Of a stretch of DNA of 64,000 bases, positions 5,682 through 63,359 are shown piece after piece. Position numbers and translations under genes: made by a program. The DNA is taken from NCBI GenBank assembly GCA_018830725.1, contig JAHJRV010000094.1, positions 30,628-94,627 on the forward strand, read 5' to 3'. The notes below the pieces were generated by a model that ran no database searches, had not been told where the DNA came from, and worked only from the letters and a program-made list of their open reading frames with translations. Position 1 is the first letter of the stretch. Each line of letters begins with the position of its first letter. The DNA comes from Actinomycetota bacterium. GTDB lineage: Bacteria > Actinomycetota > Humimicrobiia > JAHJRV01.

Positions 5682-5878
5682 AACTCCTCCTATTTTAATT
5701 AATTATCGATAAAATAAATTATATATAATTTATTTTATTTTATTAATTAATTTATTAATTATATCAGTAAAATTTAAAGAATCAATATATTGTATTATCT
5801 TTTGTCACAATTACAAAATGTTAAAAATAATAAATTTAAATGAGATTGCACAGCCTGTTCCGAGCAAGCTCCTGGTTG

Positions 5879-31768: not shown

Positions 31769-31824
31769 TAGATTTGTGGCATGGTTTCGAAGACATTTAG
31801 TCAAGAAACTATGCCCAAATCTTT
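31769..31824. repeat. short (arms-only) copy of the MITE-like inverted-repeat element
   Basis: tagatttgtggcatggtttcgaagacattt / caagaaactatgcccaaatc. This is identical to the arms of the 43689-43803 copy but lacks the GC core. Confidence 0.7.
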
Positions 31825-31850
31825 CAAAGGTTATTTAATTCATTTTTTTA

Positions 31851-31878
31851 ATGAGATTGCGCAGCCTGTTCCGAGCAT
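31851..31878. repeat. 26-28-nt motif AATGAGATTGCrCAGCCTGTTCCGAGCA (second copy at 5838-5865)
   Basis: Both copies lie immediately 3' of the stop of a minus-strand gene (uvrB here, the aldolase at 5879). Confidence 0.6.
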
Positions 31879-42682: not shown

Positions 42683-42725
42683 CCTCCCCCTACCCCCTCC
42701 CTTAAAGGGAGGGGAATTGAGTAAA
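42683..42725. repeat. core-only GC-rich hairpin module (CCCTACCCCCTCCC-TTAAA-GGGAGGGG) related to the MITE cores
   Basis: The CCCCTCCC/GGGAGGGG stem and CCCTACCCCCTCCC motif are shared with the 43689-43803 and 54868-54984 copies. Confidence 0.6.
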
Positions 42726-43688: not shown

Positions 43689-43803
43689 AGATTTGTGGCA
43701 TGGTTTCGAAGACATTTTACCCTCTCCCTACCCCCTCCCCCCTCTCCTTATTCCTCTCCCACCAGGGGAGAGGATAAACAATCAAGAAACTATGCCCAAA
43801 TCT
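43689..43803. repeat. full-length MITE-like element: imperfect about 18-nt terminal inverted repeats flanking a GC-rich core with the CCTCTCCC-ACCA-GGGGAGAGG hairpin
   Basis: Arms tttgtggcatggtttcgaag / caagaaactatgcccaaa are reverse complements. Core: ccctctccctaccccctcccccctctccttattcctctcccaccaggggagagg. Confidence 0.75.
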
Positions 43804-50066: not shown

Positions 50067-50849
50067 TTAGTCCAGATATGAATGAGCATAAAGAACCTTA
50101 TTGGTTAAAATATCATATGTCTTTAAAGTAGCCATTAGCTCTTTATCTAATGAATCAGCTATAGCAGCAGATAGTCCATTGCAAGCCAACATAATAAGCA
50201 AGATTCTATTTAACAAACTTCTAAGCTCAGGAGGAGATGACTGAGAAATATTTGATAATCCAACAATAGTTTTTGGAGGTGGATCAGATAATTGACTAAA
50301 CATTTTTATGGACTCAATTGCATAATTTACTTGGTTTTGCATTCCAGAAACTGGTAATATAATAGGGTCAATATATAAATCTTCAGGTGAAATTCCATAT
50401 TCCATTGCTTTTGTTACAATATTAAATGCTATTTGAAATCGCTCATTTTCATCCCTTGGAATACCACTCTCATCTAAAGTTAATCCTATTATTGCTGCAT
50501 TAAACTCTTTAGCCAGTGGCATTACTTTATTCATCTGCATTTCAGAACCATCTGTAGAATTTATTATAGCTCTTCCTTTATGAACCTCTAATCCAGCTTT
50601 CATAGCCTCTATATTTTTTGTGTCAAGACAAAGTGGAATATCAACCTTTTCTTGAATTGATGTTACTAACCATTTCATTAACTCAGGTCCACCCTTTGTT
50701 CCTGGACCAATATTTATATCCAGATAGTTAGCGCCAGCATCTTTCAAACTTTTTGCCAGTTCAATTATTGGTTCACTATTACGTTCCCTCATAGAAGTAC
50801 CTATTTTTGTATTTCTTATATTAATATTCTCAGCAACAATTAACATCAT
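50067..50849 (-). CDS. acsE: methyltetrahydrofolate:corrinoid/iron-sulfur protein methyltransferase (AcsE/MeTr-like pterin-binding protein)
   Basis: Pterin-binding motifs LCLDTKN, INSTDG, LYIDPIILP, PKTIVGLSNISQ and ACNGLSAAIADS closely match the Moorella MeTr pattern. Confidence 0.7.
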   Translation of the reverse strand: MMLIVAENINIRNTKIGTSMRERNSEPIIELAKSLKDAGANYLDINIGPGTKGGPELMKWLVTSIQEKVDIPLCLDTKNIEAMKAGLEVHKGRAIINSTDGSEMQMNKVMPLAKEFNAAIIGLTLDESGIPRDENERFQIAFNIVTKAMEYGISPEDLYIDPIILPVSGMQNQVNYAIESIKMFSQLSDPPPKTIVGLSNISQSSPPELRSLLNRILLIMLACNGLSAAIADSLDKELMATLKTYDILTNKVLYAHSYLD

Positions 50850-51351
50850 TCCCTCCTTCCTAAAATAAAAGTAACTTTAAATATTATTATATTTAAAATC
50901 GTAGCCAAATATCTTTAAATTATTAACAAAAATAGTAATAAATATTCTAATATTAAAAAATATAAAAATACAATTCAATATTTAATTTAAAATTAGCTTT
51001 ATATTTATACTTAAAAGCTTACTCGAGAAATTTGTGCAGTAAATAGTTCAAAAACATAGATTTAATTTATAAATAGTATAAACTATTTTTACCAATCCAA
51101 AAAAATATTAAAGTAATTTATTATAAAAACATATTAATATCAGAATTCTAAAAGATTTTAGAAAATTTTAATAATTACTTTATGAGTTAAATTTAGTTTA
51201 CGATTTTATTGGCTTTCTGTATAATTTAATGATGTTGCCTTAAAACTTTTGAATTTGTATTTTTTAAAATAATTTCTAAGTTTCCTTCTTTTTTAAAGTA
51301 AAATTCAGTATATATATAAATAAAATTAATAACCTAAACAAAGGCTTCAGA

Positions 51352-54300
51352 TTGTCATTACAAAATGAGCAAAATTTGATAAAAAAAATATCCAAAACTG
51401 GCGCGGTAATGGTTATAGGTGCTGGTGTTTCAGGAATTCAAGCTTCACTGGACTTAGCTGACTCTGGATATAAGATTTATTTAGTGGAGAAGGGACCATC
51501 AATTGGTGGAAAAATGACACAGTTGGATAAAACATTTCCTACCAATGACTGTGCCACCTGTATAGTTGCTCCCAAATTAGTTGAATGTATAAGACATCGA
51601 AATATCGAGACAATGACGCTTTGTGAAATAGTAAAGGTCGACGGTTATGCTGGAAGCTTTAAGGTTACAATTAAAAGAAATCCAAGATATGTTGATTTAG
51701 ACAAATGTACTGGGTGTGGTCAGTGTGAGAAAGCATGTCCAGTTAAATTACCAAATGAATTTGATTTGGGACTATCTCAAAGAAAGGCTATTTACAGATT
51801 CTCTCCACAAGCAGATCCCAATGTTCCAGTTATAGATGCACCTAATTGCAGATATTTAACAATGGGAAAATGTGAAGCTTGCAGTAAAATATGTCCAACG
51901 GGTGCAATAAACTTTGAGGATAGGAAAGAATTAATTAATTTAGATGTTGGTGCCTTAATTTTAGCAGTAGGATTTGAACAATCAGATATAAGCAAATTAA
52001 AAGAACTTGGTTATGGAAGATACCCTAATGTAATTACAGCTCTTCAATTTGAGAGAATAATGAATTCATCAGGTCCATTTTTAGGTCATATTCAGAGATT
52101 ATCCGATGGTAAGAAGCCGGAAAGGATTGCTTTTATTCAATGTATTGGGTCAAGAAATAAAGAAAGAGATTATTGTTCCTCTGTTTGTTGTATGCAGGCA
52201 ACCAAAGAAGCAATAATGATTAAAGAACATATTCCTGAAATCGATGTATCAATCTATTATATGGACATAAGGGTATATGGGAAAGAGTTTGACCAGTACT
52301 ATAATAGAGCCAGGGATAAATACAAGGTAAAATATATTCGATCCATGCCATCATCTATAGAAGAAGATCCGTTAACTCATAATCTATTTGTAACTTCTGT
52401 GCAAGAGAACTCATTAAAAACTGATGAGTATGATTTAGTTATTCTATCAACTGGAGTAGAACCATCAGTTGATGCTCAAGTACTATCCAAAAATATAGAT
52501 TTTGATTTAAATAAGTATGGATTCTGTAAAACAGATAGATATTCACCTGTGGAAACTACAAGAGATGGAATATACGTTTGCGGTCCTTTCTCAGAACCAA
52601 AGGATATAGCAGAATCTGTTACACAGGGATGTGCTACTGCTGGTTTAGCTGGAGCTCTCTTATCATCAAAAAGAGGGACATTGGTCAAGAAAAAAATATT
52701 TCCTGAAGAGTTGGATGTTATTGGTCAGGAACCAAGAATAGGTGTTTTCATATGTCATTGTGGAAACAACATTGCTGGAGTTGTAGACATCAATTCTGTA
52801 AAAAAATATAGTGAAAAATTGCCAAACGTGGTTTATTGCGAGGACATGAAGTATGCTTGTACTCAAGATAGTCTGCAACAAATATCTCAGATCATAAAAG
52901 AAAATAATCTTAACAGAGTAGTTGTTGCCTCATGCAGTCCAAGAACTCATGAATCATTGTTTAGAGAAAGTTTAAGAAATGCTGGATTAAATCAATTCTT
53001 GTTTGAGATGGCAAACATCAGAAATCAATGCAGCTGGGTTCATTCTAATCAACCAGAAAAAGCGACAGAAAAATCAAAGGACTTAATCAGGATGAGCGTA
53101 GCAAGAGCAGCCAGTTTAGAACCGTTAGAATTATTTTCCATCCCCATTAATAAAAAAGCCCTTATTTTGGGAGCTGGAGTTGCGGGAATGACTGCTGCTC
53201 TAACAATTAGCAAACAAGGTTTTGAAGTAGTTTTAATTGAAAAGAAAAATGAGCCAGGTGGTTTGTCTAAGAGAATAGAATATGATTTTGAAGGAAAGCA
53301 ACCAAAAAAATTTGTAGAAGAACTTATAAACAAAATAGAAAAAAATCCAAATATAACCCTTTTAACAAATTCTGAAATAACTCATATTGCTGGTTTCGTT
53401 GGGAACTTTAAGTCAAAAATAAAGCGCAGAATTAAAGATGGGGAGTTTAAACAGATTGATATTGAACATGGAGTACTAATAGTAGCAACTGGTGGTGAAG
53501 AGTATCAGGGAACTGATTATGGTTATGGAACAAATAATAAAATCTTAAGTCAATTAGAATTTGAGCATAAATTAGTAGAAAAAGAAATTAACCCGAAGCA
53601 ATTGGAGAAAGTCGTTATGATACAATGTGTTGGCTCTCGAACAGAAGAACATCCATATTGTAGTAGAGTTTGTTGTGGAGAAGCTATAAAGAACGCTCTC
53701 AGACTAAAAGAGATTAACCCTGATATAGAAATAGTTATATTATATAAAGACATTATGACTTATGGCTTTTTAGAACAATATTATACCAAAGCAAGGGATA
53801 TGGGAATTGTCTTTCTACGCTATGACGATAATAATAAGCCAGAAGTATTACCTGAGATGAATGGGAAAGTTAGAGTAAAAACTATTGACCTGAGTTTGAG
53901 AAGAGAATTTTTAATAGATTGTGATCTTCTCTTATTAAGTAGAGGTATAATTCCCTCCCCCAGCAATGAGGAACTATTTAAGATTTTAAGAGTATCATTG
54001 ATAGAACAGGGATTTTATGAGGAAGCGCATCCCAAATTGAGACCAGTTGATTTTGCTTCAGAGGGTTTCTTCCTGTGCGGATTAGCTCATACTCCAAGAC
54101 ATATAGGAGAAGTCGTAGCACAAGCACAAGCAGCTGCTTCAAGAGCAACAGTTATACTTTCCCAAAAAGAACTTCTTGCTGGAGGAGAAGTTTCTGTTGT
54201 TGACCAGGACAAATGTGTTGCTTGTCTTAACTGTGTAAGAATATGCCCATATCAGGTTCCATTTATAAATGAAAATGGAGTAGCTCAGATTGAGGTTACT

Positions 54301-54423
54301 AACTGCTATGGATGTGGGATTTGTGTAGGAGTTTGTCCTATCCATGCTATTATTTTAAAGAACTATAAGGATGAACAAGTTATACCAAAAATTGAAGCTC
54401 TTTTTAAGAAGGAGTTGGTATGA
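51352..54423 (+). CDS. hdrA: heterodisulfide reductase subunit A-like flavoprotein, double-module form (two FAD sites, two CxGxRD-x(n)-CSxxCC motifs, three ferredoxin-type 2x[4Fe-4S] sites). TTG start is likely.
   Basis: VIGAGVSGIQASLDLA and ILGAGVAGMTAALTIS Rossmann motifs. CIGSRNKERDYCSSVCC and CVGSRTEEHPYCSRVCC. Ferredoxin sites CTGCGQCEKACP / CEACSKICP / CVACLNCVRICP / CYGCGICVGVCP. Confidence 0.8.
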   Translation: MSLQNEQNLIKKISKTGAVMVIGAGVSGIQASLDLADSGYKIYLVEKGPSIGGKMTQLDKTFPTNDCATCIVAPKLVECIRHRNIETMTLCEIVKVDGYAGSFKVTIKRNPRYVDLDKCTGCGQCEKACPVKLPNEFDLGLSQRKAIYRFSPQADPNVPVIDAPNCRYLTMGKCEACSKICPTGAINFEDRKELINLDVGALILAVGFEQSDISKLKELGYGRYPNVITALQFERIMNSSGPFLGHIQRLSDGKKPERIAFIQCIGSRNKERDYCSSVCCMQATKEAIMIKEHIPEIDVSIYYMDIRVYGKEFDQYYNRARDKYKVKYIRSMPSSIEEDPLTHNLFVTSVQENSLKTDEYDLVILSTGVEPSVDAQVLSKNIDFDLNKYGFCKTDRYSPVETTRDGIYVCGPFSEPKDIAESVTQGCATAGLAGALLSSKRGTLVKKKIFPEELDVIGQEPRIGVFICHCGNNIAGVVDINSVKKYSEKLPNVVYCEDMKYACTQDSLQQISQIIKENNLNRVVVASCSPRTHESLFRESLRNAGLNQFLFEMANIRNQCSWVHSNQPEKATEKSKDLIRMSVARAASLEPLELFSIPINKKALILGAGVAGMTAALTISKQGFEVVLIEKKNEPGGLSKRIEYDFEGKQPKKFVEELINKIEKNPNITLLTNSEITHIAGFVGNFKSKIKRRIKDGEFKQIDIEHGVLIVATGGEEYQGTDYGYGTNNKILSQLEFEHKLVEKEINPKQLEKVVMIQCVGSRTEEHPYCSRVCCGEAIKNALRLKEINPDIEIVILYKDIMTYGFLEQYYTKARDMGIVFLRYDDNNKPEVLPEMNGKVRVKTIDLSLRREFLIDCDLLLLSRGIIPSPSNEELFKILRVSLIEQGFYEEAHPKLRPVDFASEGFFLCGLAHTPRHIGEVVAQAQAAASRATVILSQKELLAGGEVSVVDQDKCVACLNCVRICPYQVPFINENGVAQIEVTNCYGCGICVGVCPIHAIILKNYKDEQVIPKIEALFKKELV

Positions 54424-54854
54424 GTAATTTTGAACCTGAAATAATAGCTTTTTGTTGTAATCAATGTGCATATGCTGCAGCTGACCTTACTGGTTCTATG
54501 AGAATGAATTATCCTCCAAATGTTAAGATAATTAAACTACCTTGTGCTGGAAAATTTGAAACAATATATATGTTGAAAGCGTTTGAAATGGGAGCTGATG
54601 GAGGAATCGTGGCGGGATGTTTGGAAGGTTGTTGTCATTATAGAACTGGAAATCTGCAAGCAGCTAAAAGAATTAAAAGGGTTAAGAGGATATTAAAAGA
54701 GTTAGGTTTGGAAGAAGAAAGAGTCGATATATTTTATATGTCTTCAGCTATGGGACGTGAATTTGCTGAAGCTGCTACTAAAATAACTGAGACGGTTAGA
54801 AAGTTAGGTCCAAATCCAATTAAAAAAATCAAATCTGAAAAAGTAAAAATTTAA
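54420..54854 (+). CDS. mvhD: methyl-viologen-reducing hydrogenase delta subunit-like protein (MvhD)
   Basis: Cys pattern FCCNQC...CAG...GCLEGCC typical of the MvhD [2Fe-2S] site. It overlaps hdrA by 4 nt (ATGA). Confidence 0.75.
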   Translation: MSNFEPEIIAFCCNQCAYAAADLTGSMRMNYPPNVKIIKLPCAGKFETIYMLKAFEMGADGGIVAGCLEGCCHYRTGNLQAAKRIKRVKRILKELGLEEERVDIFYMSSAMGREFAEAATKITETVRKLGPNPIKKIKSEKVKI

Positions 54855-54867
54855 ATATTATTGAAAG

Positions 54868-54984
54868 CTTTGGGCAAAGTTTCTCTCTTCCCCTCCCTTT
54901 ATGGGAGGGGGTAGGGAGATTATCCTCTCCCCTGGTGGGAGAGGGTAGGGAGAGGGTAAAATGTCTGCGAAACCATGCCACAAA
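54868..54984. repeat. MITE-like element, inverted orientation, with a duplicated GC core (both hairpin modules)
   Basis: Its reverse complement aligns to the 43689-43803 copy. It contains CCCCTCCC-TTTAT-GGGAGGGG and CCTCTCCC-CTGGT-GGGAGAGG hairpins. Confidence 0.75.
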
Positions 54985-55084
54985 GCTATTTATTACGAAA
55001 ATTAAATTTAAAAAATCAATTATTTAATAAATTCTGATAAAATTTTGTTTTAAAATTTTTTAAGTATTTTTATAATAGATTATT

Positions 55085-58000
55085 ATGGAAGATATCTCTA
55101 AAATAAGTAAAGAATTAGAAAAGATTGGCTCAGTATTAGTAGTTGGTGGCGGTACTGCTGGTGTTCAAGCAGCTTTTGATCTTGTTGAGTCTGGCTTCAA
55201 AGTCTACCTTGTTGAAAAATCGTGGACTCTGGGTGGTAAGATGGCTCAACTTGACAAAACATATCCTACTCTTGATTGCTTTTTCTGTGGAATAGCTCCT
55301 GAACCATTGGGTTGTCTACGTAATTTTGATGTAGAAACTATGGCTTTTGATGATGCACTTGTTGATATAAGTGAAAAAAGAATGTGCAGAGCAACAATAG
55401 TGAGAAAGCCTCACTACATTGATGGGAAACATTTTAATTTAGAGATTTTATCTTCAGTTGAGGTTTCCAGAGTACGTGGATATCCTGGCAACTTTGAAGT
55501 GGCATTATATAAAACACCTAACTTTGTAGATATAAATAAATGTACTGGATGTGGAAAATGTGCTGAGGTCTGCCCAGTAAAAATTCCAAGTGAGTATGAT
55601 GCCAGTCTGGTTGAAAGAAAAATAATCTATCGACCTTACCCACAAATTATGAAAAATATCTTCAGAATAGATAAGATAGATTTAAAGGAAGAGGTACAGA
55701 AATATCATCCAGAATTAGATATTAAAAGTTGTCTTTCATGTAGAAAATGTGAAGAAATATGTCCTGAAGGTGCTATAAACTTTAATGCTGTCCCTGAAAT
55801 GCAATACATCAATGTAGGGGCGATAATTTTAGCTCAGGGATTTGAACTTATTGATCCATTTACTATAACTGAACTTGGTTTTAGTAGGTTCAAAAATGTG
55901 ATCACCTCTCTCCAATTAGAAAGAATCATGACTAAATCTGGTCCTTCGGGAGGAAGACTTGTCAGACCATCCGATGATAAAGAGCCAGGAAAAATCGGTT
56001 TTATTCAGTGCGTTGGAACAAGAAATAAGAAACATGATTATTGTTCGACTGTATGCTGCATGCATGCTACAAAGGAAGCAATCTTAGCCAAAGAAAATTT
56101 GCCAGAAATAGAAGCTAAAATTTTTACACTTGATATGAGGGCATACGGTAAAGGTTATGAGGAACTATATCAAAAAGCAAAGAATTTTTATGGGGTTGAC
56201 TACATAAGAAGTAGACCTTCCTTTATTGAAGAAGACCCAGAAACTCAAGACTTAATTATTACCTATGTAAGTAAAAATGGTAAATTAGTGAAAGAAAATT
56301 TTCAAGTGATTGTTCTTTCTATGGGGTTTGTTGCTCCAAAAACAACCAAAAGAGATAGTCAAATATATCAAATAGAACTGAACGAGCATGGATTTATCAA
56401 AACTACTGATTTTAAACCTCTAAATACAAGTAGAGATGGAATATTTGTATGTGGTTCCTTCTCTGAACCAAAAGACATACCAGATTCTATCACTGAAGGA
56501 AGTGGAACTACTGCTTTGGCATCAGCATTGTTAGCAGATCAAAAAGGCAGTCTTATTGAGAAAAAGAAATATCCTATTCAAATGGAAATTGATTATGAAA
56601 ATCCAAGAATTGGTGTAATTCTTTGTCAGTGTGGAAATGAGATTTCCAGAGTAGTTAAGATGGCAGAGTTGGTAAAATTTATAAGAACCATCAGTGATAT
56701 AGTTGTTGTAGAAAATGAATTCTATGCTTGCTCACCTCAAATTGAGAAAAAAATAGAATATATTATGACTCAGTATAATCTAAACAGATTAGTTGTAGGT
56801 GCCTGCTCTCCAAGAACACATGCTCCGCTTTTCAAAGAAATTCTAAGAGATATTGGAATAAATTATAATATGGTTGAGGTTGTTAATTTAAGAGAACAAT
56901 GTAGTTGGGTTCACTATAGTTCTCCCTATAAGGCGACTCAAAAAGCTATGAGCTTAATTCAGATGGCAATAGCTAAAATAAAGAAAGCAAAACCACTTCT
57001 GGAAAATTATGTAGGTATTAATTCTCGAGCACTTATAGTAGGTGGAGGAATGGCAGGAATGGTAGTAGCCTTGAACCTGGCAGAGCAAGGACATCCTGTA
57101 ACCTTAGTAGAAAAAGAGGATGAGTTAGGAGGGCATTTAAAAAAGATAGTTTTTACCCTATCAGGAGAAGATCCACAAAAACTATTGGTTAATCTAAGAA
57201 AGATGATCAGTTCAAATACGAATATAGAAGTTTTATTCAATTCAGAAGTTACAGATGTGAAGGGATATGTTGGTAATTTCCAGTCAAAAGTAGTTATAAA
57301 AAAACCAGGAGAAAAAGAGGAAATCAAAAAAATTATGCATGGGGTTACCATCATTGCCACAGGTGGAGATGAGTATAGGGGTAATGAATACCTGTTAAAT
57401 AAAGATAGTAGAGTAATGACACAAGTTGATTTTGAACAAAAACTTACTGATAACCAGGAGAAACTAGGTACAATAGGTAACCTGGCTATGATTCAATGTG
57501 TAGGATGTAGAAATAATGAAAGAACTTATTGTAGTAGGGTTTGTTGTGGAAAAGCCATAAAAAATGCAATTAAATTTAAGGAAAAAAATCCTGATTCAAA
57601 TATATTTATTTTTTATAAGGATATTAGAAGCTACGGATTTATAGAGCAGTATTATACAAAAGCACGAGAAATGGGTATTATGTTTATGAGATTTGAAGAT
57701 GATAAAAAACCTGAAGTGCAAAAGTATAATAATAAAAAATCATTAGAGATTTCATTCTTCGATCTTAATTTAAAAAAGAATCTTAAAATTAAAGTAGGTT
57801 TAATTGTTCTTTCTACAGCCATTATTCCTCTTGAAGGAAATAAAAAATTAGCAAATATGCTGGGAGTGCCTCTGGATGAAAATGGATTCTTTTTAGAGAA
57901 GCATATAAAAGTAAGACCGGTTGATACAAAAAGGGATGGAATATTTGTTTGTGGTCTTGCTCACTCTCCTAAATATTTAAGAGAGACTATAGCTCAAGCA

Positions 58001-58297
58001 TTAGCTACTGCTTCTCGAGCAAGTACCGTCTTATCAAAGAAAGAGATGCGGATAGGAATTAAAATCTCTAAAGTAGATGAGGAGAAATGTATAGGTTGCT
58101 TAACCTGTGTAAGAGTTTGTCCTTCAGGAGTACCAAAAATAAATGAGCAAGGAGTATCTGAGATAAATCCATTTGAGTGCAAAGGTTGCGGAATATGTGC
58201 CTCTGCTTGCCCAGCTAATGCTATAGATGTAGTTAACTACCCTCATGATCAGATGATTGCTACAGAATTATCATTAAGAGAGGAAGTGTTAGTTTAA
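55085..58297 (+). CDS. hdrA: heterodisulfide reductase subunit A-like flavoprotein, double-module form (paralog of 51352-54423)
   Basis: VVGGGTAGVQAAFDL and IVGGGMAGMVVALNLA. CVGTRNKKHDYCSTVCC and CVGCRNNERTYCSRVCC. Ferredoxin Cys clusters present. Confidence 0.8.
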   Translation: MEDISKISKELEKIGSVLVVGGGTAGVQAAFDLVESGFKVYLVEKSWTLGGKMAQLDKTYPTLDCFFCGIAPEPLGCLRNFDVETMAFDDALVDISEKRMCRATIVRKPHYIDGKHFNLEILSSVEVSRVRGYPGNFEVALYKTPNFVDINKCTGCGKCAEVCPVKIPSEYDASLVERKIIYRPYPQIMKNIFRIDKIDLKEEVQKYHPELDIKSCLSCRKCEEICPEGAINFNAVPEMQYINVGAIILAQGFELIDPFTITELGFSRFKNVITSLQLERIMTKSGPSGGRLVRPSDDKEPGKIGFIQCVGTRNKKHDYCSTVCCMHATKEAILAKENLPEIEAKIFTLDMRAYGKGYEELYQKAKNFYGVDYIRSRPSFIEEDPETQDLIITYVSKNGKLVKENFQVIVLSMGFVAPKTTKRDSQIYQIELNEHGFIKTTDFKPLNTSRDGIFVCGSFSEPKDIPDSITEGSGTTALASALLADQKGSLIEKKKYPIQMEIDYENPRIGVILCQCGNEISRVVKMAELVKFIRTISDIVVVENEFYACSPQIEKKIEYIMTQYNLNRLVVGACSPRTHAPLFKEILRDIGINYNMVEVVNLREQCSWVHYSSPYKATQKAMSLIQMAIAKIKKAKPLLENYVGINSRALIVGGGMAGMVVALNLAEQGHPVTLVEKEDELGGHLKKIVFTLSGEDPQKLLVNLRKMISSNTNIEVLFNSEVTDVKGYVGNFQSKVVIKKPGEKEEIKKIMHGVTIIATGGDEYRGNEYLLNKDSRVMTQVDFEQKLTDNQEKLGTIGNLAMIQCVGCRNNERTYCSRVCCGKAIKNAIKFKEKNPDSNIFIFYKDIRSYGFIEQYYTKAREMGIMFMRFEDDKKPEVQKYNNKKSLEISFFDLNLKKNLKIKVGLIVLSTAIIPLEGNKKLANMLGVPLDENGFFLEKHIKVRPVDTKRDGIFVCGLAHSPKYLRETIAQALATASRASTVLSKKEMRIGIKISKVDEEKCIGCLTCVRVCPSGVPKINEQGVSEINPFECKGCGICASACPANAIDVVNYPHDQMIATELSLREEVLV

Positions 58298-58299
58298 TT

Positions 58300-58773
58300 A
58301 TGTTTGAACCTGAAATAATAGCTTTTTGTTGTGAATATTGTGGTTACTCTGCTGCTGATTTAGCTGGAGCGATGAGAGTCGAGTATCCTCCAAACGTTGT
58401 AATAGTAAGAGTTCCATGTGCAGGATACTTAACACATGTTCATATATTGAGAGTATTTGAGGAGGGTTATGATGGAGTCTTTATTGCTAGTTGTCTTGAA
58501 GGAAGCTGTCAATATAGAACCGGAAATGAAAGAGCAGAGAAAATGGTGTCAACAGTAAAGAAGTCGTTAGATGAAGTCAGAATAGGTGGAGAGAGATTGG
58601 AGATTTATAAAATGGCTTCCTCTATGGGAAAATATTTCGCTGATATTGCCATAAATATGACTGAGAAAATTAAAAAATTAGGTCCTAATCCTATAAAATT
58701 AATAGAAGAAAGATTTGAGGAAGAGGAGCGTAGACAGTTAAAAGAAATGGGAGTGGGAATCTCAACTACTTAA
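58300..58773 (+). CDS. mvhD: MvhD-like [2Fe-2S] protein (paralog)
   Basis: FCCEYCGYSAADL...CAG...SCLEGSC. It starts 3 nt after the hdrA stop. Confidence 0.75.
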   Translation: MFEPEIIAFCCEYCGYSAADLAGAMRVEYPPNVVIVRVPCAGYLTHVHILRVFEEGYDGVFIASCLEGSCQYRTGNERAEKMVSTVKKSLDEVRIGGERLEIYKMASSMGKYFADIAINMTEKIKKLGPNPIKLIEERFEEEERRQLKEMGVGISTT

Positions 58774-58823
58774 TTAAAAAAGATTGGATTAATAATAAAT
58801 TCGCTTTATGAGGAGGTGAAATT

Positions 58824-59492
58824 ATGATTGTAGCAGAAAGAAAACCCTTCGACGAAATAAAAGAAATAATAAAAGATAAAAAAAATATAACGATTATTGG
58901 CTGTGGAACTTGTGTTACCATAAATCAGACAGGTGGAGAAAAAGAAGTTGCTATATTAGCTTCTGAGTTAAGAATTGCTAAAAAGCTTGATGGTGATAGT
59001 GTTAATGTTAAACAATTAACAATTCAAAGGCAATGTGAAAGGGAATTTGTAGAAGAGATAAGTCAAAAGATTGAACAAGCAGATGTAGTTCTTTCTATGG
59101 CTTGTGGAGTTGGAGTTCAGACAATGGCTGGGATATATCCAGATAAATTAATATTTCCTACCCTGAATACAATATCCATGGCATTTCCTGATAAACCTGG
59201 TTTTTTTAAGGAAATGTGTATAGGTTGTGGAAATTGTGTTCTATGTGAATATGGAGGAATTTGTCCAATTACACGCTGTTCAAAAAGTATGTTGAATGGT
59301 CCCTGTGGAGGATCTCGAGATGGAAAATGCGAAGTCGATCCTGATATTGAATGTGCTTGGCAACTTATAGTTGATAAATTAAAAAAACAGGGTCGTTTAG
59401 ATATATTAACTAAAATAAAACCTGCAAAGGATTGGTCCTCTTCTCATCATGGAGGACCAAGAACATTAATAATTGAAGAGGCTGAGATATAG
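58824..59492 (+). CDS. metV: MetV-like protein (methylene-tetrahydrofolate reductase C-terminal domain family, Cys-rich)
   Basis: 222 aa with Cys clusters CIGCGNCVLCEYGGICPITRCSKSMLNGPCGG. It lies immediately upstream of metF, with a strong RBS ggaggtg. Confidence 0.6.
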   Translation: MIVAERKPFDEIKEIIKDKKNITIIGCGTCVTINQTGGEKEVAILASELRIAKKLDGDSVNVKQLTIQRQCEREFVEEISQKIEQADVVLSMACGVGVQTMAGIYPDKLIFPTLNTISMAFPDKPGFFKEMCIGCGNCVLCEYGGICPITRCSKSMLNGPCGGSRDGKCEVDPDIECAWQLIVDKLKKQGRLDILTKIKPAKDWSSSHHGGPRTLIIEEAEI

Positions 59493-59545
59493 AAATATTG
59501 AGATAAGTAAGTATTTTTTAAGAAATTAACAAATAGAGGATAAAT

Positions 59546-60475
59546 ATGAATAAAGAAATGAAATCAGAGAGCAATTTAGAGAAATTATTAAGCAGAGGGG
59601 AATTCGTAGTTACAGCTGAGCTTGGTCCTCCAAAGGGAGCCAATATTAATACAATTATTAATAAAGTAAAAATATTAAAAGGATTTTGTGATGCTGTAAA
59701 TATCACAGATAATCAAACTTCTATTGTTAGAATGTCTTCTATTGCATCCGCCATTAAAATTATACAATTAGGAATGGAACCCATAATTCAAATGGTAACG
59801 AGAGATAGAAACAGAATAGCACTTCAGAGCGATTTAATTGGAGCTGCTGCTCTTGGTGTAAAAAATGTTCTTTGTCTTACTGGAGATCATCAAAGTTTTG
59901 GAAATCATCCTTCAAGTAAAAATGTTTTTGATGTTGATTCAATCCAGTTGGTAAAAATGTTCAAGGATATGAGAGATGAACATAAGTTTCAATGTGGTGA
60001 AGAGATGAAACATCCTCCAGAGATCTTCATAGGGGCTGCTGCTAATCCATTTGCTGATCCCTTTGACTTTCGACCTATAAGATTGGCTAAAAAGGTGAAT
60101 GCAGGTGTTGATTTTATACAAACTCAATTAGTTTATAATATAGAAAAATTCAAAGAATATATGAAGAAGGTCAGAGAAATGGGCTTACACAAAAAGGTTT
60201 ATATACTTGCTGGAGTTGGACCAATTAAATCTGTGGGAATGGCTAAATACATGCAAAAAAATGTAGCTGGTATGGATGTCCCTGACAAGATAGTAGAAAG
60301 ACTTAAAAAAAGCAAAGATGCAAAAGAAGAAGGTATAAATATTTGTGTAGATATAATCCAGGAAATTAAAGAGATAGAAGGTGTATCTGGAGTCCATATA
60401 ATGGCTATAGCCTGGGAAGAAGCGGTTCCAATTATTGTTGAAAAAACTGGATTACTTCCCAGACCAAAACCATAA
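59546..60475 (+). CDS. metF: 5,10-methylenetetrahydrofolate reductase
   Basis: MTHFR-fold motifs EFVVTAELGPPKG, LCLTGDH and FIQTQLVY. Confidence 0.75.
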   Translation: MNKEMKSESNLEKLLSRGEFVVTAELGPPKGANINTIINKVKILKGFCDAVNITDNQTSIVRMSSIASAIKIIQLGMEPIIQMVTRDRNRIALQSDLIGAAALGVKNVLCLTGDHQSFGNHPSSKNVFDVDSIQLVKMFKDMRDEHKFQCGEEMKHPPEIFIGAAANPFADPFDFRPIRLAKKVNAGVDFIQTQLVYNIEKFKEYMKKVREMGLHKKVYILAGVGPIKSVGMAKYMQKNVAGMDVPDKIVERLKKSKDAKEEGINICVDIIQEIKEIEGVSGVHIMAIAWEEAVPIIVEKTGLLPRPKP

Positions 60476-60548
60476 AAGGAATAGAAAATAAAAGATGGGT
60501 TCAGGTCTTGTAATATAACAAAATTTATCTAATTTTGAAGTAATAAAA

Positions 60549-60647
60549 GCTTTGGGTATACTTTCTTGAGTATTTATCCTCTCCCCTGGTGGGAGAGGAA
60601 TAAGGAGAGGGGGAATTTAAAATGTCTTCGAAAGTATACTACGAAGC
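60549..60647. repeat. MITE-like element, inverted orientation, with diverged but still self-complementary arms
   Basis: Arms gggtatactttcttgag / cgaaagtatactacgaag. Core ttattcctctcccctggtgggagagg is shared with the other copies. Confidence 0.7.
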
Positions 60648-60703
60648 TAAAAATCTCTATAAAAATAAACTTTTGAAATTAAAATTACAAAAAATGGTGA
60701 AAA

Positions 60704-61210
60704 ATGAATGATAAAGTACCAGATAAGCTTTTAAAAATAGATAGATCTTTAGCGCAGAAGTTTATAAAAACACCTGGTCAAAATCCTTATTTGTGCTATC
60801 AATGTAATAAATGTAGTTGTGGATGTCCTACAGCTCATAAAATGACTTTACTACCACATCAGATTATGAGAGCTGTCCAACTGGGTCAGATGGAAATGAT
60901 ACTGGATAACGACTCTATATTTTACTGCTCTTTCTGCCATACTTGCTTAGAAAGATGTCCGCAGGGAATTGCTGTATCAGAGATCATATCTAAATTGAAG
61001 GGTATGGTAGCTAAGATAAAAGGAATGCCTTCTGCATACAAGGATGAGTTTAAAATGATAGCTGAAACTGGTAGAACTTCTCCTCTAACATCTGCAGTTA
61101 GAAGAAGAAGAGAACAACTCGGATTACCTTCATTATCTGAAACAGTTGGAAAGGGAGAAGCTAAAAAGATCATTAAAAAAACAGAAATAATCTCATATAT
61201 AGAAAAATAA
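60704..61210 (+). CDS. hdrC: heterodisulfide reductase subunit C-like protein (2x[4Fe-4S])
   Basis: CYQCNKCSCGCP and CSFCHTCLERCP motifs. Confidence 0.7.
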   Translation: MNDKVPDKLLKIDRSLAQKFIKTPGQNPYLCYQCNKCSCGCPTAHKMTLLPHQIMRAVQLGQMEMILDNDSIFYCSFCHTCLERCPQGIAVSEIISKLKGMVAKIKGMPSAYKDEFKMIAETGRTSPLTSAVRRRREQLGLPSLSETVGKGEAKKIIKKTEIISYIEK

Positions 61211-61240
61211 AGTCAAGCCCTGAAATAACAAATTTCATTT

Positions 61241-62182
61241 ATGTTGAGAAAGGAAATTATAAATAAAGAAATGGGAAATCAAGAAATAACAAAAAAGCAA
61301 GAAAATTATGATTATCTTCTATTTTTAGGGTGTCTTATTCCAACCTCACTTCCCTATATGGAGATAGCTGCAAGAAAATCCTTAGAAATATTAAATATTA
61401 AACTAAAAGAAACAAATGATTTTGCGTGTTGCCCAGATCCGGTTGGAATAAAAGCCATGGATGAAATAACCTGGTTATCTCTTGGAGCTCGAAATCTATG
61501 TGTGGCACAGAAGATAGGTTTAGATATTCTCACTCTTTGTAATGGTTGCTATGAAACTTTAAAAGAAACAAGTCATATATTAAAAGAGCAAAAAGAAACT
61601 TTAGAGAAAGTAAATAAAATATTATCTTCAGTAAACAAAGAATATAAAGGAAACATAATAGTAAAACATATAGCTGAAGTTCTTTACAAAGAAGTTGGTA
61701 CCTCCAAAATTTCCAGTGTTGTAAAAAAACCATTAAAAAATTTGAAAGTATCCGCTTTTTACGGTTGTCATGTAGTAAGACCCAGTGAAATAATGGAATT
61801 TGACGATCCTGAAAATCCGAAATTCCTGGATGAATTAATAGAAGCTATAGGTTGTATTTCAGTTCCTAGAATGCAAAAGATGTTATGTTGTGGAGCTCCA
61901 CTACTTGGAGTAAATATGGAATTATCCTTAGAAATGGCTAAAAATAATCTTGATTATATTAAATCTTCAGGAGCAGATTGTATTGTAACTCTATGTCCAT
62001 TCTGCCAGACTCAATTTGATAGAAACCAAGCTGTTATACAAAGAAAATTTAATTTAGATTACAATTTACCAGCTTTATATTATCCTGAATTGCTTTGTTT
62101 AGCTTTGGGAGTTGAACCTGAAAAATTAGGTTTTAATCTCCATAGAGTCAAAGTAGATCCAATATTGGAAAAAATCCTGTAA
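61241..62182 (+). CDS. hdrB: heterodisulfide reductase subunit B-like protein (two CCG domains)
   Basis: CCG motifs FACCPDP / CNGC and MLCCGAP / CPFC. Confidence 0.7.
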   Translation: MLRKEIINKEMGNQEITKKQENYDYLLFLGCLIPTSLPYMEIAARKSLEILNIKLKETNDFACCPDPVGIKAMDEITWLSLGARNLCVAQKIGLDILTLCNGCYETLKETSHILKEQKETLEKVNKILSSVNKEYKGNIIVKHIAEVLYKEVGTSKISSVVKKPLKNLKVSAFYGCHVVRPSEIMEFDDPENPKFLDELIEAIGCISVPRMQKMLCCGAPLLGVNMELSLEMAKNNLDYIKSSGADCIVTLCPFCQTQFDRNQAVIQRKFNLDYNLPALYYPELLCLALGVEPEKLGFNLHRVKVDPILEKIL

Positions 62183-62249: not shown

Positions 62250-63359
62250 TTATTTCACAAAATAGGTATTTCTAATGTTCTCTGATACTTTGTTTAATAG
62301 AATTAGTGCTTTGTCCGCTTCTTCCTCTGAAACTGTTCCCAAGCCACAGGAATGTGTCAAAAGGGATCTCCTCAAAATGAAATCTTTATCTAAACCTTTA
62401 TTAACAAGAAATTCGATCTGTTTATTAAACTTATTAATTATTTCTTCAATTAGGTTATTTATATTATCTTCTCTTGGTTCTGTTGGAACTATCCCCCATG
62501 CTAATACTTTTCCCCTATTTAAAAACTCAATTATTTCATCACTATATATTGAGAAATTTTCAAAATAGTTATATGCATCGAAATTTATGATATCAACATC
62601 TGTTTCGGTTATAAGTGACCAATCAGTTTTTCCGCAACAATGAATTCCCTTTATACCATTAACAGCATTAAAACATTGATTTAATTGATTAATAATCTGT
62701 TCTTTGGAAAGACTTATATAAGAAGACCCTAATGAAGCTAAATAGGGCTCATCAAAAAATATTATACTCTGACAATTAGGGCAGATTTTTTTAAATTCAT
62801 TTTCCTGCCACTTTGCAATCATTGATATTGATTTAACTGCAGTATCCTGAATTATATTATTATAAAAAATTGGTTTTCTATCCTGGTCTAATAAACTAAA
62901 ACCAAGTGTAATTGGTCCAGTAACTTGCCCCTTGATGTACTTTATATCACCCCTAATATTATTAATATTACTTAGGAGTTTTATATCATCACAATATTTT
63001 CCACTCATAATTTCTATAAATTTATAAAATCCTTTTGCTCTATTTGAAGAAATTGCAAAATTATCTATTTTTTTAGAAGTGTATTTAATATAAAACTCAT
63101 CCAAATTTTTAATGTAATCTTTTTCTGTATCAATCCATATCTTTTCATTCTCGTAATCTACTATCTCATTTGGTATATGCTCTGAAAATTGAGCACTCAT
63201 ATTTTCCAGGAAATTTATTTTAGGTAGCTGAGGCCAATATGGAGCAATTGGATACAACTCTAAAACTTTTAAACATGTATACTTTACATCTTTAAAAGGT
63301 AAACTTCCTACCCCTGTGGCAATACATTTTGGTTCAAAATCCAATTTCTTCTCATTCAT
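62250..63359 (-). CDS. UROD/MetE-superfamily methyltransferase (cobalamin-independent methionine synthase catalytic-domain-like)
   Basis: TGVGSLPF (resembles MetE TTIGSFPR), IFFDEPYLA (resembles IQIDEP), IHCCG and THSCGLG putative Zn ligands. Confidence 0.45.
   Translation of the reverse strand: MNEKKLDFEPKCIATGVGSLPFKDVKYTCLKVLELYPIAPYWPQLPKINFLENMSAQFSEHIPNEIVDYENEKIWIDTEKDYIKNLDEFYIKYTSKKIDNFAISSNRAKGFYKFIEIMSGKYCDDIKLLSNINNIRGDIKYIKGQVTGPITLGFSLLDQDRKPIFYNNIIQDTAVKSISMIAKWQENEFKKICPNCQSIIFFDEPYLASLGSSYISLSKEQIINQLNQCFNAVNGIKGIHCCGKTDWSLITETDVDIINFDAYNYFENFSIYSDEIIEFLNRGKVLAWGIVPTEPREDNINNLIEEIINKFNKQIEFLVNKGLDKDFILRRSLLTHSCGLGTVSEEEADKALILLNKVSENIRNTYFVK

Follow-up and report, generated by a model that had tools for sequence, protein, structure and literature searches.

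The closest described relatives of the locus reported here are the methylenetetrahydrofolate (methylene-H4F) reductases (MTHFRs) of the heterodisulfide reductase (Hdr) type, and we describe below a gene cluster of this type with two HdrA-MvhD pairs, found in a 64,000-nucleotide (nt) stretch of the Actinomycetota bacterium assembly GCA_018830725.1 (contig JAHJRV010000094.1, positions 30,628 to 94,627 of the forward strand); this whole stretch is called the window and coordinates are positions within it. What appears to be new, and the novelty is modest, is a second HdrA-MvhD module, both conserved and specialised, that a subclade of the Humimicrobiia carries in its MTHFR operon, and a literature search found no published description of a second HdrA-MvhD pair. 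In Moorella thermoacetica the MetFV-HdrABC-MvhD enzyme (Mock et al. 2014), as far as it is recounted in PMC9430772 and PMC9012536, has the same six subunit types encoded in one cluster in the order hdrCBA-mvhD-metVF, with one HdrA-MvhD pair, and its HdrA likewise has two TrxR/FAD modules (FAD, flavin adenine dinucleotide), a complementary Cys197 and N-terminal domain, and the Glu/Lys residues in both modules. The Moorella HdrA is a protein of 162.8 kDa and 1487 amino acids (aa) with a GltD-type FAD/NAD(P)H insertion (PMC9430772). The Hdr-type MTHFR of Sporomusa ovata has the same subunit set and one pair, with an HdrA of ~100 kDa (101 kDa) that has two TrxR/FAD modules, no GltD domain, no inserted ferredoxin (5 clusters are predicted) and Glu/Lys in one TrxR module (PMC9430772). 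Of the same phylum-level lineage are the Hakuba actinobacteria and Ca. Hakubella thermalkaliphila (UBA1414/Humimicrobiia-related), for which a single hdrA-mvhD pair is reported and whose HdrA (P0124) is 51% identical to HdrA1 of the window (PMC7325909).

Two-TrxR fusions of HdrA are already published from the MetF-associated HdrA of Moorella, from Sporomusa, from anaerobic methanotrophic archaea (ANME) and from BamE. Tandem or fused HdrAs with complementary Cys197 and N-terminal domain have been read as intramolecular heterodimers in ANME and in Moorella, the MetFV-associated HdrA of the latter being such a two-module fusion (Chadwick et al., PMC9012536). BamE, from the Geobacter metallireducens class II benzoyl-CoA reductase, has been described by electron cryomicroscopy in a preprint as a "fused HdrA dimer" in which TrxR1 holds the bifurcating FAD beside Cys59-Cys62 and TrxR2 holds a non-bifurcating FAD (bioRxiv 10.64898/2026.04.10.717634).

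The gene cluster

The initial annotation gave the gene content and order as hdrA1-mvhD1-hdrA2-mvhD2-metV-metF-hdrC-hdrB, which the open reading frames (ORFs), all on the + strand, and Pfam matches bear out. The eight genes are as follows.

51352-54423, + strand: hdrA1, HdrA-like (Pfam FAD/Pyr_redox and Fer4), 1023 aa, TTG start; aa 1-452 (nt 51352-52707) form module 1 and aa 453-1023 (nt 52708-54420) form module 2
54420-54854, + strand: mvhD1, [2Fe-2S] adaptor, 144 aa (Pfam FlpD, 1.8e-45)
55085-58297, + strand: hdrA2, HdrA-like, divergent two-module fusion, 1070 aa; aa 1-498 form module 1 and aa 499-1070 form module 2
58300-58773, + strand: mvhD2, second adaptor, 157 aa (Pfam FlpD, 2.5e-42)
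58824-59492, + strand: metV, Fe-S subunit of MTHFR, 222 aa with 13 Cys (PF12225, 2e-34)
59546-60475, + strand: metF, catalytic subunit of methylene-H4F reductase, 309 aa (PF02219, 3.2e-40)
60704-61210, + strand: hdrC, 2x[4Fe-4S] protein with two CxxCxxCxxxC motifs, 168 aa (Pfam Fer4_17 and others)
61241-62182, + strand: hdrB, 313 aa with two CCG domains (Pfam CCG, 4.4e-29, in two stretches)

With adjacent metV and metF genes alongside hdrA, hdrB, hdrC and mvhD, all codirectional, the locus has the gene content by which Hdr-type MTHFRs are recognised, and its assignment as an Hdr-type MetFV-HdrABC-MvhD cluster is supported; the likeness to the Moorella component set that had been proposed also stands, the same six subunit types being found in one cluster. 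NCBIfam and Pfam agree at family level across the cluster, with NCBIfam scores mostly just below equivalog cutoffs: the matches to the metF product are under cutoff, HdrC reaches 100.6 bits against a cutoff of 160 (TIGR03290) and HdrB, at 326.5 bits, falls just under 345 (TIGR03288). The Cys motifs are complete in HdrC, HdrB, MetV and the MvhDs, with Cx31CCx35CxxC and Cx39CCx34CxxC in HdrB, so that both CCG-type motifs are present, and 6-7 Cys in each of MvhD1 and MvhD2. The genome that matches best, a Ca. Humimicrobiia (Actinomycetota) MAG (metagenome-assembled genome), has identical gene order and 98% and 95.5% protein identity in HdrA1 and HdrA2 respectively; the G+C content is ~30-35%.

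The position of hdrCB downstream of metF had been singled out as unusual and does differ from the order in Moorella, however the order hdrA-mvhD-metVF-hdrCB, which the window shares apart from its additional hdrA-mvhD pair, was already reported for the UBA1414/Hakuba actinobacteria (PMC7325909).

Conservation of the second HdrA-MvhD pair

The two-pair arrangement was counted in five independent assemblies drawn from NCBI MAGs, JGI and Logan, namely the window, L001, L002, L034 and L037, and both pairs are found together in all five of these assemblies with context. The eight-gene order is complete in L001 and in L037, a JGI metagenome stretch with 80% identity in HdrA1 and 85% in HdrA2; L002, a second MAG whose contig ends inside metV, has the same order as far as the contig reaches, and so, to its contig end, has the Logan assembly L034, with an HdrA2 of 84% identity and a partial upstream ORF that is 83% identical to HdrA1. 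The contig of a further relative, L084, stops after mvhD1 and was not counted for pair 2. The position of pair 2 between mvhD1 and metV is kept in at least three species-level lineages.

The concern that a hidden stop or frameshift might lie between the two halves of each HdrA is set aside by the ORFs, which are without internal stops in the window and in the four other assemblies. Furthermore, the ligand Cys of both HdrAs are all conserved in orthologs, and the ratio of nonsynonymous to synonymous substitution rates (dN/dS) falls at 0.08-0.18 in the two HdrAs (dS reaching ~1), like that of MetF and HdrB, and at 0.08-0.14 in HdrA2 alone; with intact ligands and a dN/dS of ~0.1 the second pair is not degenerate, which had been raised as a possible objection. 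Judged from their sequences, the two HdrA-MvhD pairs are genuine and appear to be functional.

A relative further removed (L035/L036, 66% identical to HdrA1) carries just one pair, its genes being arranged as fhs-hdrA-mvhD-metV-hdrC-hdrB-rnhB-metF. The identity of this pair to pair 1 is 66% in HdrA and 72.5% in MvhD, against 45-48% and 55% to pair 2, and it clusters with HdrA1/MvhD1 both in a neighbour-joining (NJ) tree and by identities; HdrA1 is the ortholog of its HdrA and also of that of Ca. Hakubella. From this grouping HdrA1-MvhD1 is read as the ancestral pair and HdrA2-MvhD2 as an addition restricted to a subclade. In L035 (13469-17094) and in L036 the stretch metV-hdrC-hdrB-rnhB-metF includes an RNase HII gene that separates hdrB from metF, and given this differing order the arrangement of genes around metVF is fluid in this actinobacterial lineage. 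Several HdrA-MvhD pairs per locus also occur in MAGs from other phyla: in L004 (Thermodesulfobacteriota) a double-HdrA-mvhD-metV-metF series is accompanied by a divergent second pair, L006 (Phycisphaerales) is another such locus, and L008 (Desulfobacterales) has three double-HdrA/MvhD pairs in a row without metF, where ORF interruptions suggest selenocysteine.

One candidate relative, with a seemingly hybrid HdrA, was treated as a mis-assembly and left unused. This sequence (L003; GenBank JAGMBY010000041.1, 10001-16564, an "Actinomycetes" MAG) has an HdrA 73% identical to HdrA1 followed by MvhD2, and identity taken segment by segment along the alignment shows that the N-terminal ~80% of the protein is HdrA1-type and the C-terminus HdrA2-type, with the switch near alignment column 840. 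Elsewhere it carries a stray HdrA2 fragment fused to an HdrB tail and scrambled pieces of metV, hdrA2 and hdrB together with an unrelated metF and a radical-SAM gene. The most probable cause is that the two paralogs were merged by the assembler where they are most alike (53616-53846 against 57487-57717 of the window, 72% nt identity).

Architecture of the HdrA proteins

The halves of both HdrAs were aligned to the sequence of the Methanothermococcus thermolithotrophicus HdrA structure (5odc_A); phmmer searches of the PDB matched this chain at 2.2e-196 (658 bits) with HdrA1 and at 1.7e-153 (516 bits) with HdrA2. The two proteins share one build, two TrxR/FAD/[4Fe-4S] cores with a single set of accessory domains. 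Module 1 begins at the TrxR-like FAD domain and contains FPTxDCxxC (Cys194/Cys197), an inserted two-cluster ferredoxin, the four TrxR-cluster Cys, Glu356 and Lys409, and is without the N-terminal domain and the C-terminal ferredoxin. Module 2 combines the N-terminal cluster domain, which resembles MvhD, with a TrxR-like FAD domain, in which the four Cys of the cluster, Glu356 and Lys409 are found, and with a two-cluster ferredoxin at the C-terminus; the DCxxC motif and the ferredoxin insert are missing from it. The GxGxxG FAD site, C386/C399/C403/C404, and Glu356 with Lys409 are found in all four TrxR modules; Glu356/Lys409 is the criterion for a bifurcating flavin used by Kremp et al. (PMC9430772).

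The lengths of 1023 and 1070 aa agree with the ~1020-1070 aa first given for these proteins, which had been described as containing two complete HdrA-like modules each. The FAD and cluster motifs are indeed there in each module, and both an inserted and a C-terminal ferredoxin are present, however there is one of each, in different halves. Each protein has a single N-terminal domain, inserted ferredoxin, C-terminal ferredoxin and DCxxC motif, and since these are split between its halves the description as two complete modules is not correct. By this alignment each HdrA amounts to an HdrA homodimer joined covalently and made asymmetric, a complementary pseudo-dimer with a predicted 2 FAD and 7 [4Fe-4S] clusters, of which module 1 probably carries the bifurcating FAD. 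Nor is a double-module HdrA unusual, as had been suggested, the ~1000-aa form with two TrxR modules being normal for MetF-associated HdrA. Searches with HdrA2 gave more than 6500 homologues at E <= 1e-20; the best-scoring 120 span 1004-1581 aa, and the named homologues among these 120 are from Deltaproteobacteria/Thermodesulfobacteriota, Chloroflexota, Firmicutes, Bathyarchaeia, Aminicenantes, Aerophobetes, Elusimicrobiota and others.

Compared with the Moorella protein the window HdrAs, at 1023 and 1070 aa, have no GltD domain: no match to the GltD-type FAD/NAD(P)H insertion (PF14691/GltD) was obtained in either HdrA or in their 96-98% identical relatives, and NADH therefore cannot enter as it does in Moorella. 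They differ from the S. ovata HdrA in that the ferredoxin insert is present (7 clusters predicted) and Glu/Lys is kept in both modules. Lacking GltD and retaining the ferredoxin insert, the window HdrAs are most like BamE in domain content, sharing with it a Cys-x2-Cys near the TrxR1 FAD and, by prediction, 2 FAD and 7 [4Fe-4S] clusters, an MvhD-like adaptor that feeds the C-terminal ferredoxin, and the inserted ferredoxin as low-potential exit. However, TrxR2 of BamE has Gln in place of the Lys that the window retains in both modules, and the partners of BamE are BamD, BamBC and BamGHI rather than HdrBC and MetVF. BamF, moreover, carries selenocysteine, whereas the ORFs of the window cluster have no in-frame stop and therefore none of them can encode it.

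The tandem or fused HdrAs of ANME show the same complementary loss of Cys197 and N-terminal domain and also occur in multiple copies per cluster (PMC9012536), but in ANME HdrA3/4 the N-terminal half has the N-terminal domain and the C-terminal half has Cys197, which is the reverse of the window, and the ANME clusters are not linked to metF. All four domain types of the methanogen HdrA, together with the CCG domains of HdrB, the ferredoxin motifs of HdrC, and MvhD, as known from HdrABC-MvhAGD (PDB 5ODC and related structures), can be recognised in the window. Whilst the methanogen HdrA is a homodimer of ~650-aa chains with a full domain set in each, a chain in the window has two cores and one accessory set, and the MvhAG hydrogenase of the methanogen system is not encoded in the window cluster.

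Features that set HdrA2 apart

HdrA1 and HdrA2 are 46-48% identical and MvhD1 and MvhD2 51% identical. One difference between the HdrAs is an insertion in the HdrA2 clade.

55319-55426, + strand: 36-aa insertion of the HdrA2 clade (aa 79-114), directly after DCxxC, a degenerate repeat of the adjacent following segment

Locally aligned with the HdrA1 equivalent this insertion scores 42, against a mean of 19.6 (sd 3.9) for shuffles. Among 88 sequences, the spacing from DCxxC to the ferredoxin motif is 89 aa solely in the 6 HdrA2-clade sequences and 52-53 aa in the 81 other scorable ones. HdrA2 has a further insertion of 16 aa within the ferredoxin insert, where it separates one cluster motif from the other, and its second ferredoxin motif is a canonical CxxCxxCxxxC where the HdrA1 clade has Cx7CxxCxxxC; elsewhere the class of this motif is phylogenetically coherent, 61 of 64 nearest neighbours sharing it. 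Between the window and L037 the remodelled regions are 94-95% conserved and are the most conserved parts of HdrA2, as opposed to 75-78% for the equivalent regions of HdrA1, which are among its least conserved. As the remodelled and constrained region corresponds to the low-potential exit in HdrA and BamE, we infer that HdrA2 is specialised and has gained a specific partner or acceptor at this surface.

The initial annotation described the two pairs as tandemly duplicated, but the paralogs are not mutual closest relatives. HdrA2 shows 47.2% identity with the HdrA1 clade against 45-47% with other subfamilies, and so is no closer to HdrA1 than to the HdrAs of other phyla; for HdrA1, more than 120 foreign proteins are nearer than HdrA2 is. 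In a database of 5.8 billion proteins HdrA2 has two close 90%-identity clusters only, all the rest being at most 47% identical, and in a midpoint-rooted NJ tree it falls on a long branch outside all others. With this flat identity of ~47% and a differing class of ferredoxin motif, tandem duplication is not demonstrated; the identities and the NJ tree would be compatible with either local duplication or transfer as the origin of pair 2.

Proposed electron path and alternative readings

By homology, MetF would reduce methylene-H4F within the Wood-Ljungdahl methyl branch, MetV would wire MetF to the Fe-S chain, HdrC and HdrB would provide the cubane and non-cubane Fe-S branch, MvhD would be a [2Fe-2S] adaptor to an electron-input module that the cluster does not encode, and HdrA would be the flavin-based bifurcating (or confurcating) core. 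In a path modelled at every step on the HdrA and BamE structures, electrons would pass from the donor module to the [2Fe-2S] cluster of MvhD, from there to the C-terminal ferredoxin in module 2 of HdrA and on to the module-1 FAD beside the DCxxC pair, where they would be split. One branch would run through the TrxR cluster of module 1 to HdrC/HdrB and presumably to MetV/MetF and methylene-H4F, the other through the N-domain cluster, completed by a Cys of module 1, and the ferredoxin insert to a low-potential acceptor.

On balance we favour the reading that this is an Hdr-type methylene-H4F reductase, a CO2-fixation enzyme, from an uncultured member of Ca. Humimicrobiia (Actinomycetota), in which two non-equivalent HdrA-MvhD modules probably serve as alternative or parallel modules sharing one MetVF and one HdrBC; the two would differ in the docking of partners at MvhD and/or at the inserted ferredoxin. 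Either an electron-bifurcating MTHFR with two HdrAs or alternative HdrA isoforms for different redox partners had been proposed from the outset, and the cluster type, the intact pairs, the ligands and the Glu/Lys signature agree with both, although the novelty then claimed for the double HdrA and the gene order is lost. A number of points weigh against the reading that we favour. The S. ovata MTHFR was not seen to co-reduce ferredoxin or NAD(P)+ (PMC9430772), so that bifurcation is a hypothesis for Hdr-type MTHFRs as a class. The second FAD of BamE is non-bifurcating, so that the Glu/Lys of module 2 may not mean a second bifurcation site. By gene calls, moreover, the gap between the pairs is just 70-128 nt in L037 and L034 and the spacing within pairs is tight (in the window hdrA1 and mvhD1 overlap at an ATGA stop-start and mvhD2 begins 2 nt past the hdrA2 stop), which suggests co-transcription of both pairs, and this fits one heteromeric complex at least as well as it fits alternative isoforms.

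Such a heteromer, in which HdrA1 and HdrA2 dimerise to give an asymmetric MTHFR with two MvhD adaptors, two low-potential arms and two inputs or outputs, is the main rival, which we consider rather unlikely. The pairs are always found together, they lie close to one another with translational coupling inside each, and there is a single metVF and a single hdrCB beside them; the fused BamE, too, still dimerises to a (BamED)2 core. However, the relative with a single pair (L035) evidently works with one HdrA type, and a very stable, strain-specific hairpin element (described below) is tolerated between the pairs. A more demanding form of this idea, an obligate HdrA1-HdrA2 core of two non-equivalent bifurcating modules with separate MvhD inputs and low-potential exits, where the 36-aa insertion and the remodelled ferredoxin insert of HdrA2 would dock a dedicated partner such as MetV, is improbable. 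If true, it would be a two-input or tandem-bifurcation MTHFR with a logic like that of the coupled modules of class II benzoyl-CoA reductase.

It is very unlikely, in our view, that HdrA2-MvhD2 acts outside the MTHFR, as a module for another redox enzyme that landed in the operon, for example by horizontal transfer. The equal distance (~47%) of HdrA2 from HdrA1 and from the HdrAs of other phyla would be expected in that case, as would its canonical second ferredoxin motif, of a class otherwise coherent among neighbours and unlike the Cx7C motif of the HdrA1 clade, and the Desulfobacterales array mentioned above shows that HdrA-MvhD series without metF exist; yet pair 2 has stayed between mvhD1 and metV across lineages and the cluster holds no other candidate partner gene. 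That the second pair is degenerate, or that the tandem layout and long ORFs are products of assembly, is effectively refuted: although the chimeric HdrA1/HdrA2 ORF and scrambled fragments of L003 show that these paralogs can confuse assemblers, the five independent assemblies agree on the intact arrangement, with ligands conserved throughout and a dN/dS of ~0.1.

The second pair bears on the electron donor and on a possible second acceptor of Hdr-type methylene-H4F reductases, and hence on the energetics of acetogenesis in Moorella-type organisms. Two modules that stand beside one MetVF/HdrBC and differ mainly in low-potential exit and adaptor also offer a natural comparison for surfaces of partner choice. 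The enzyme type is extended to low-GC Actinomycetota, an incremental gain given that this class of enzyme, its fused HdrA and the order of its genes were known.

Promoter and terminator signals

Gene spacing would fit a single transcription unit for the eight genes, and a sequence scan found no convincing intrinsic terminators inside the predicted operon. A TTTAAA-16-TATAAT sequence (55049-55084) ends 9 nt before the ATG of hdrA2, which unlike the neighbouring genes has no Shine-Dalgarno sequence upstream, and a leaderless internal transcript start at hdrA2 is conceivable from this. However, the AT-rich DNA here holds no excess of promoter-like sites (45 against 50.5 expected), and the -10 element before hdrA2 is only partly conserved in L037 and L034.

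A hairpin repeat element

The 230-nt spacer between mvhD1 and hdrA2 contains a hairpin element that the initial annotation had called an insertion of a miniature inverted-repeat transposable element (MITE). A second copy, overlooked at that time, and others are present in the window.

54866-54987, + strand: hairpin element of 122 nt with inverted outer arms and two nested GC-rich hairpins, in the mvhD1-hdrA2 spacer
60548-60648, + strand: second copy, with one nested GC-rich module, between metF and hdrC
31770-31822, - strand: further copy
43689-43803, - strand: further copy
42685-42724: piece consisting of the GC hairpin only

As RNA the copy between mvhD1 and hdrA2 has a folding energy of -68.3 kcal/mol (z = -6.2). 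It is missing from the same site in L001 and L002, which are 98%-identical relatives, and its absence there supports an insertion. At the metF-hdrC site L001 holds a minimal element, to which the copy in the window adds a nested 46-bp GC module. The core of the element is ~53 nt (61-63 nt with short flanks), with the consensus AGATTTGGGCATAGTTTCTTGACTAAAATGTCTTCGAAACCATGCCACAAATCT; its outer arms pair, some copies being changed on both arms with pairing kept, and in roughly one copy out of four the loop holds one or two nested GC-rich hairpins. The element is of high copy number in this lineage, being found in 46 metagenome stretches (among loci L037-L083) with at least 8 copies on one 66-kb contig, and it has no match to an Rfam family.

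Between co-directional ORFs 52 of 54 copies are sense to the flanking genes (p = 1.6e-13), none of the copies scored lies in a convergent or divergent spacer, and the copies in the window change orientation along with the strand of the genes. The inverted repeats, the dispersed copies and the presence/absence polymorphism are what would be expected of a MITE, but the orientation is tied to the genes and no target-site duplication was noticed by eye. Given this strong sense bias and the absence from convergent and divergent spacers, the element is more like a transcribed, repetitive extragenic palindromic (REP)-like intra-operon RNA/DNA element than a classical MITE.

A second short repeat, TTTAAATGAGATTGCRCAGCCTGTTCCGAGCA, occurs at 5835-5866 and 31846-31877, the two sites being 94% identical and both in - strand intergenic spacers, one between an aldolase-like gene and a 256-aa ORF and the other between uvrB and uvrA, where a copy of the hairpin element directly adjoins it.

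Neighbouring genes

The cluster is flanked by the following features.

50067-50849, - strand: acsE-like gene for a methyl-H4F:corrinoid/Fe-S protein methyltransferase, divergent (Pfam Pterin_bind, 2.4e-21)
50850-51351, no strand: divergent AT-rich spacer of 502 nt, presumed promoter region
62250-63359, - strand: convergent neighbour gene with a 369-aa product, weakly MetE-like (PRK00957, 2.6e-12, below cutoff)

The divergent AcsE-type gene that had been placed upstream is thus present on the - strand, 502 nt away, and is syntenic in L001, L002, L037 and L084. Its product scores 249.5 bits with PRK07535 (cutoff 259) and 228.6 bits with CODH_ACS_meth (cutoff 370), both below cutoff, and no carbon monoxide dehydrogenase/acetyl-CoA synthase (CODH/ACS) genes were found within the 64-kb window. 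In the spacer before hdrA1 there is one 10/12 sigma-70-like site at 51197-51225, although such sites are not above shuffled expectation. The 369-aa protein has no Pfam match; it may act as a "core" methionine synthase on the methyl group that this operon would make. Its gene runs towards hdrB and keeps this position in L001, L034 and L037, and in relatives it is followed by lipA-lpd-folD-fhs, as downstream in L034, whose proteins from pair 2 to HdrB are 83-96% identical to those of the window. The remainder of the window is housekeeping in content, encoding LigA, GatCAB, DnaE, PolA, UvrABC and peptide ABC transporters.

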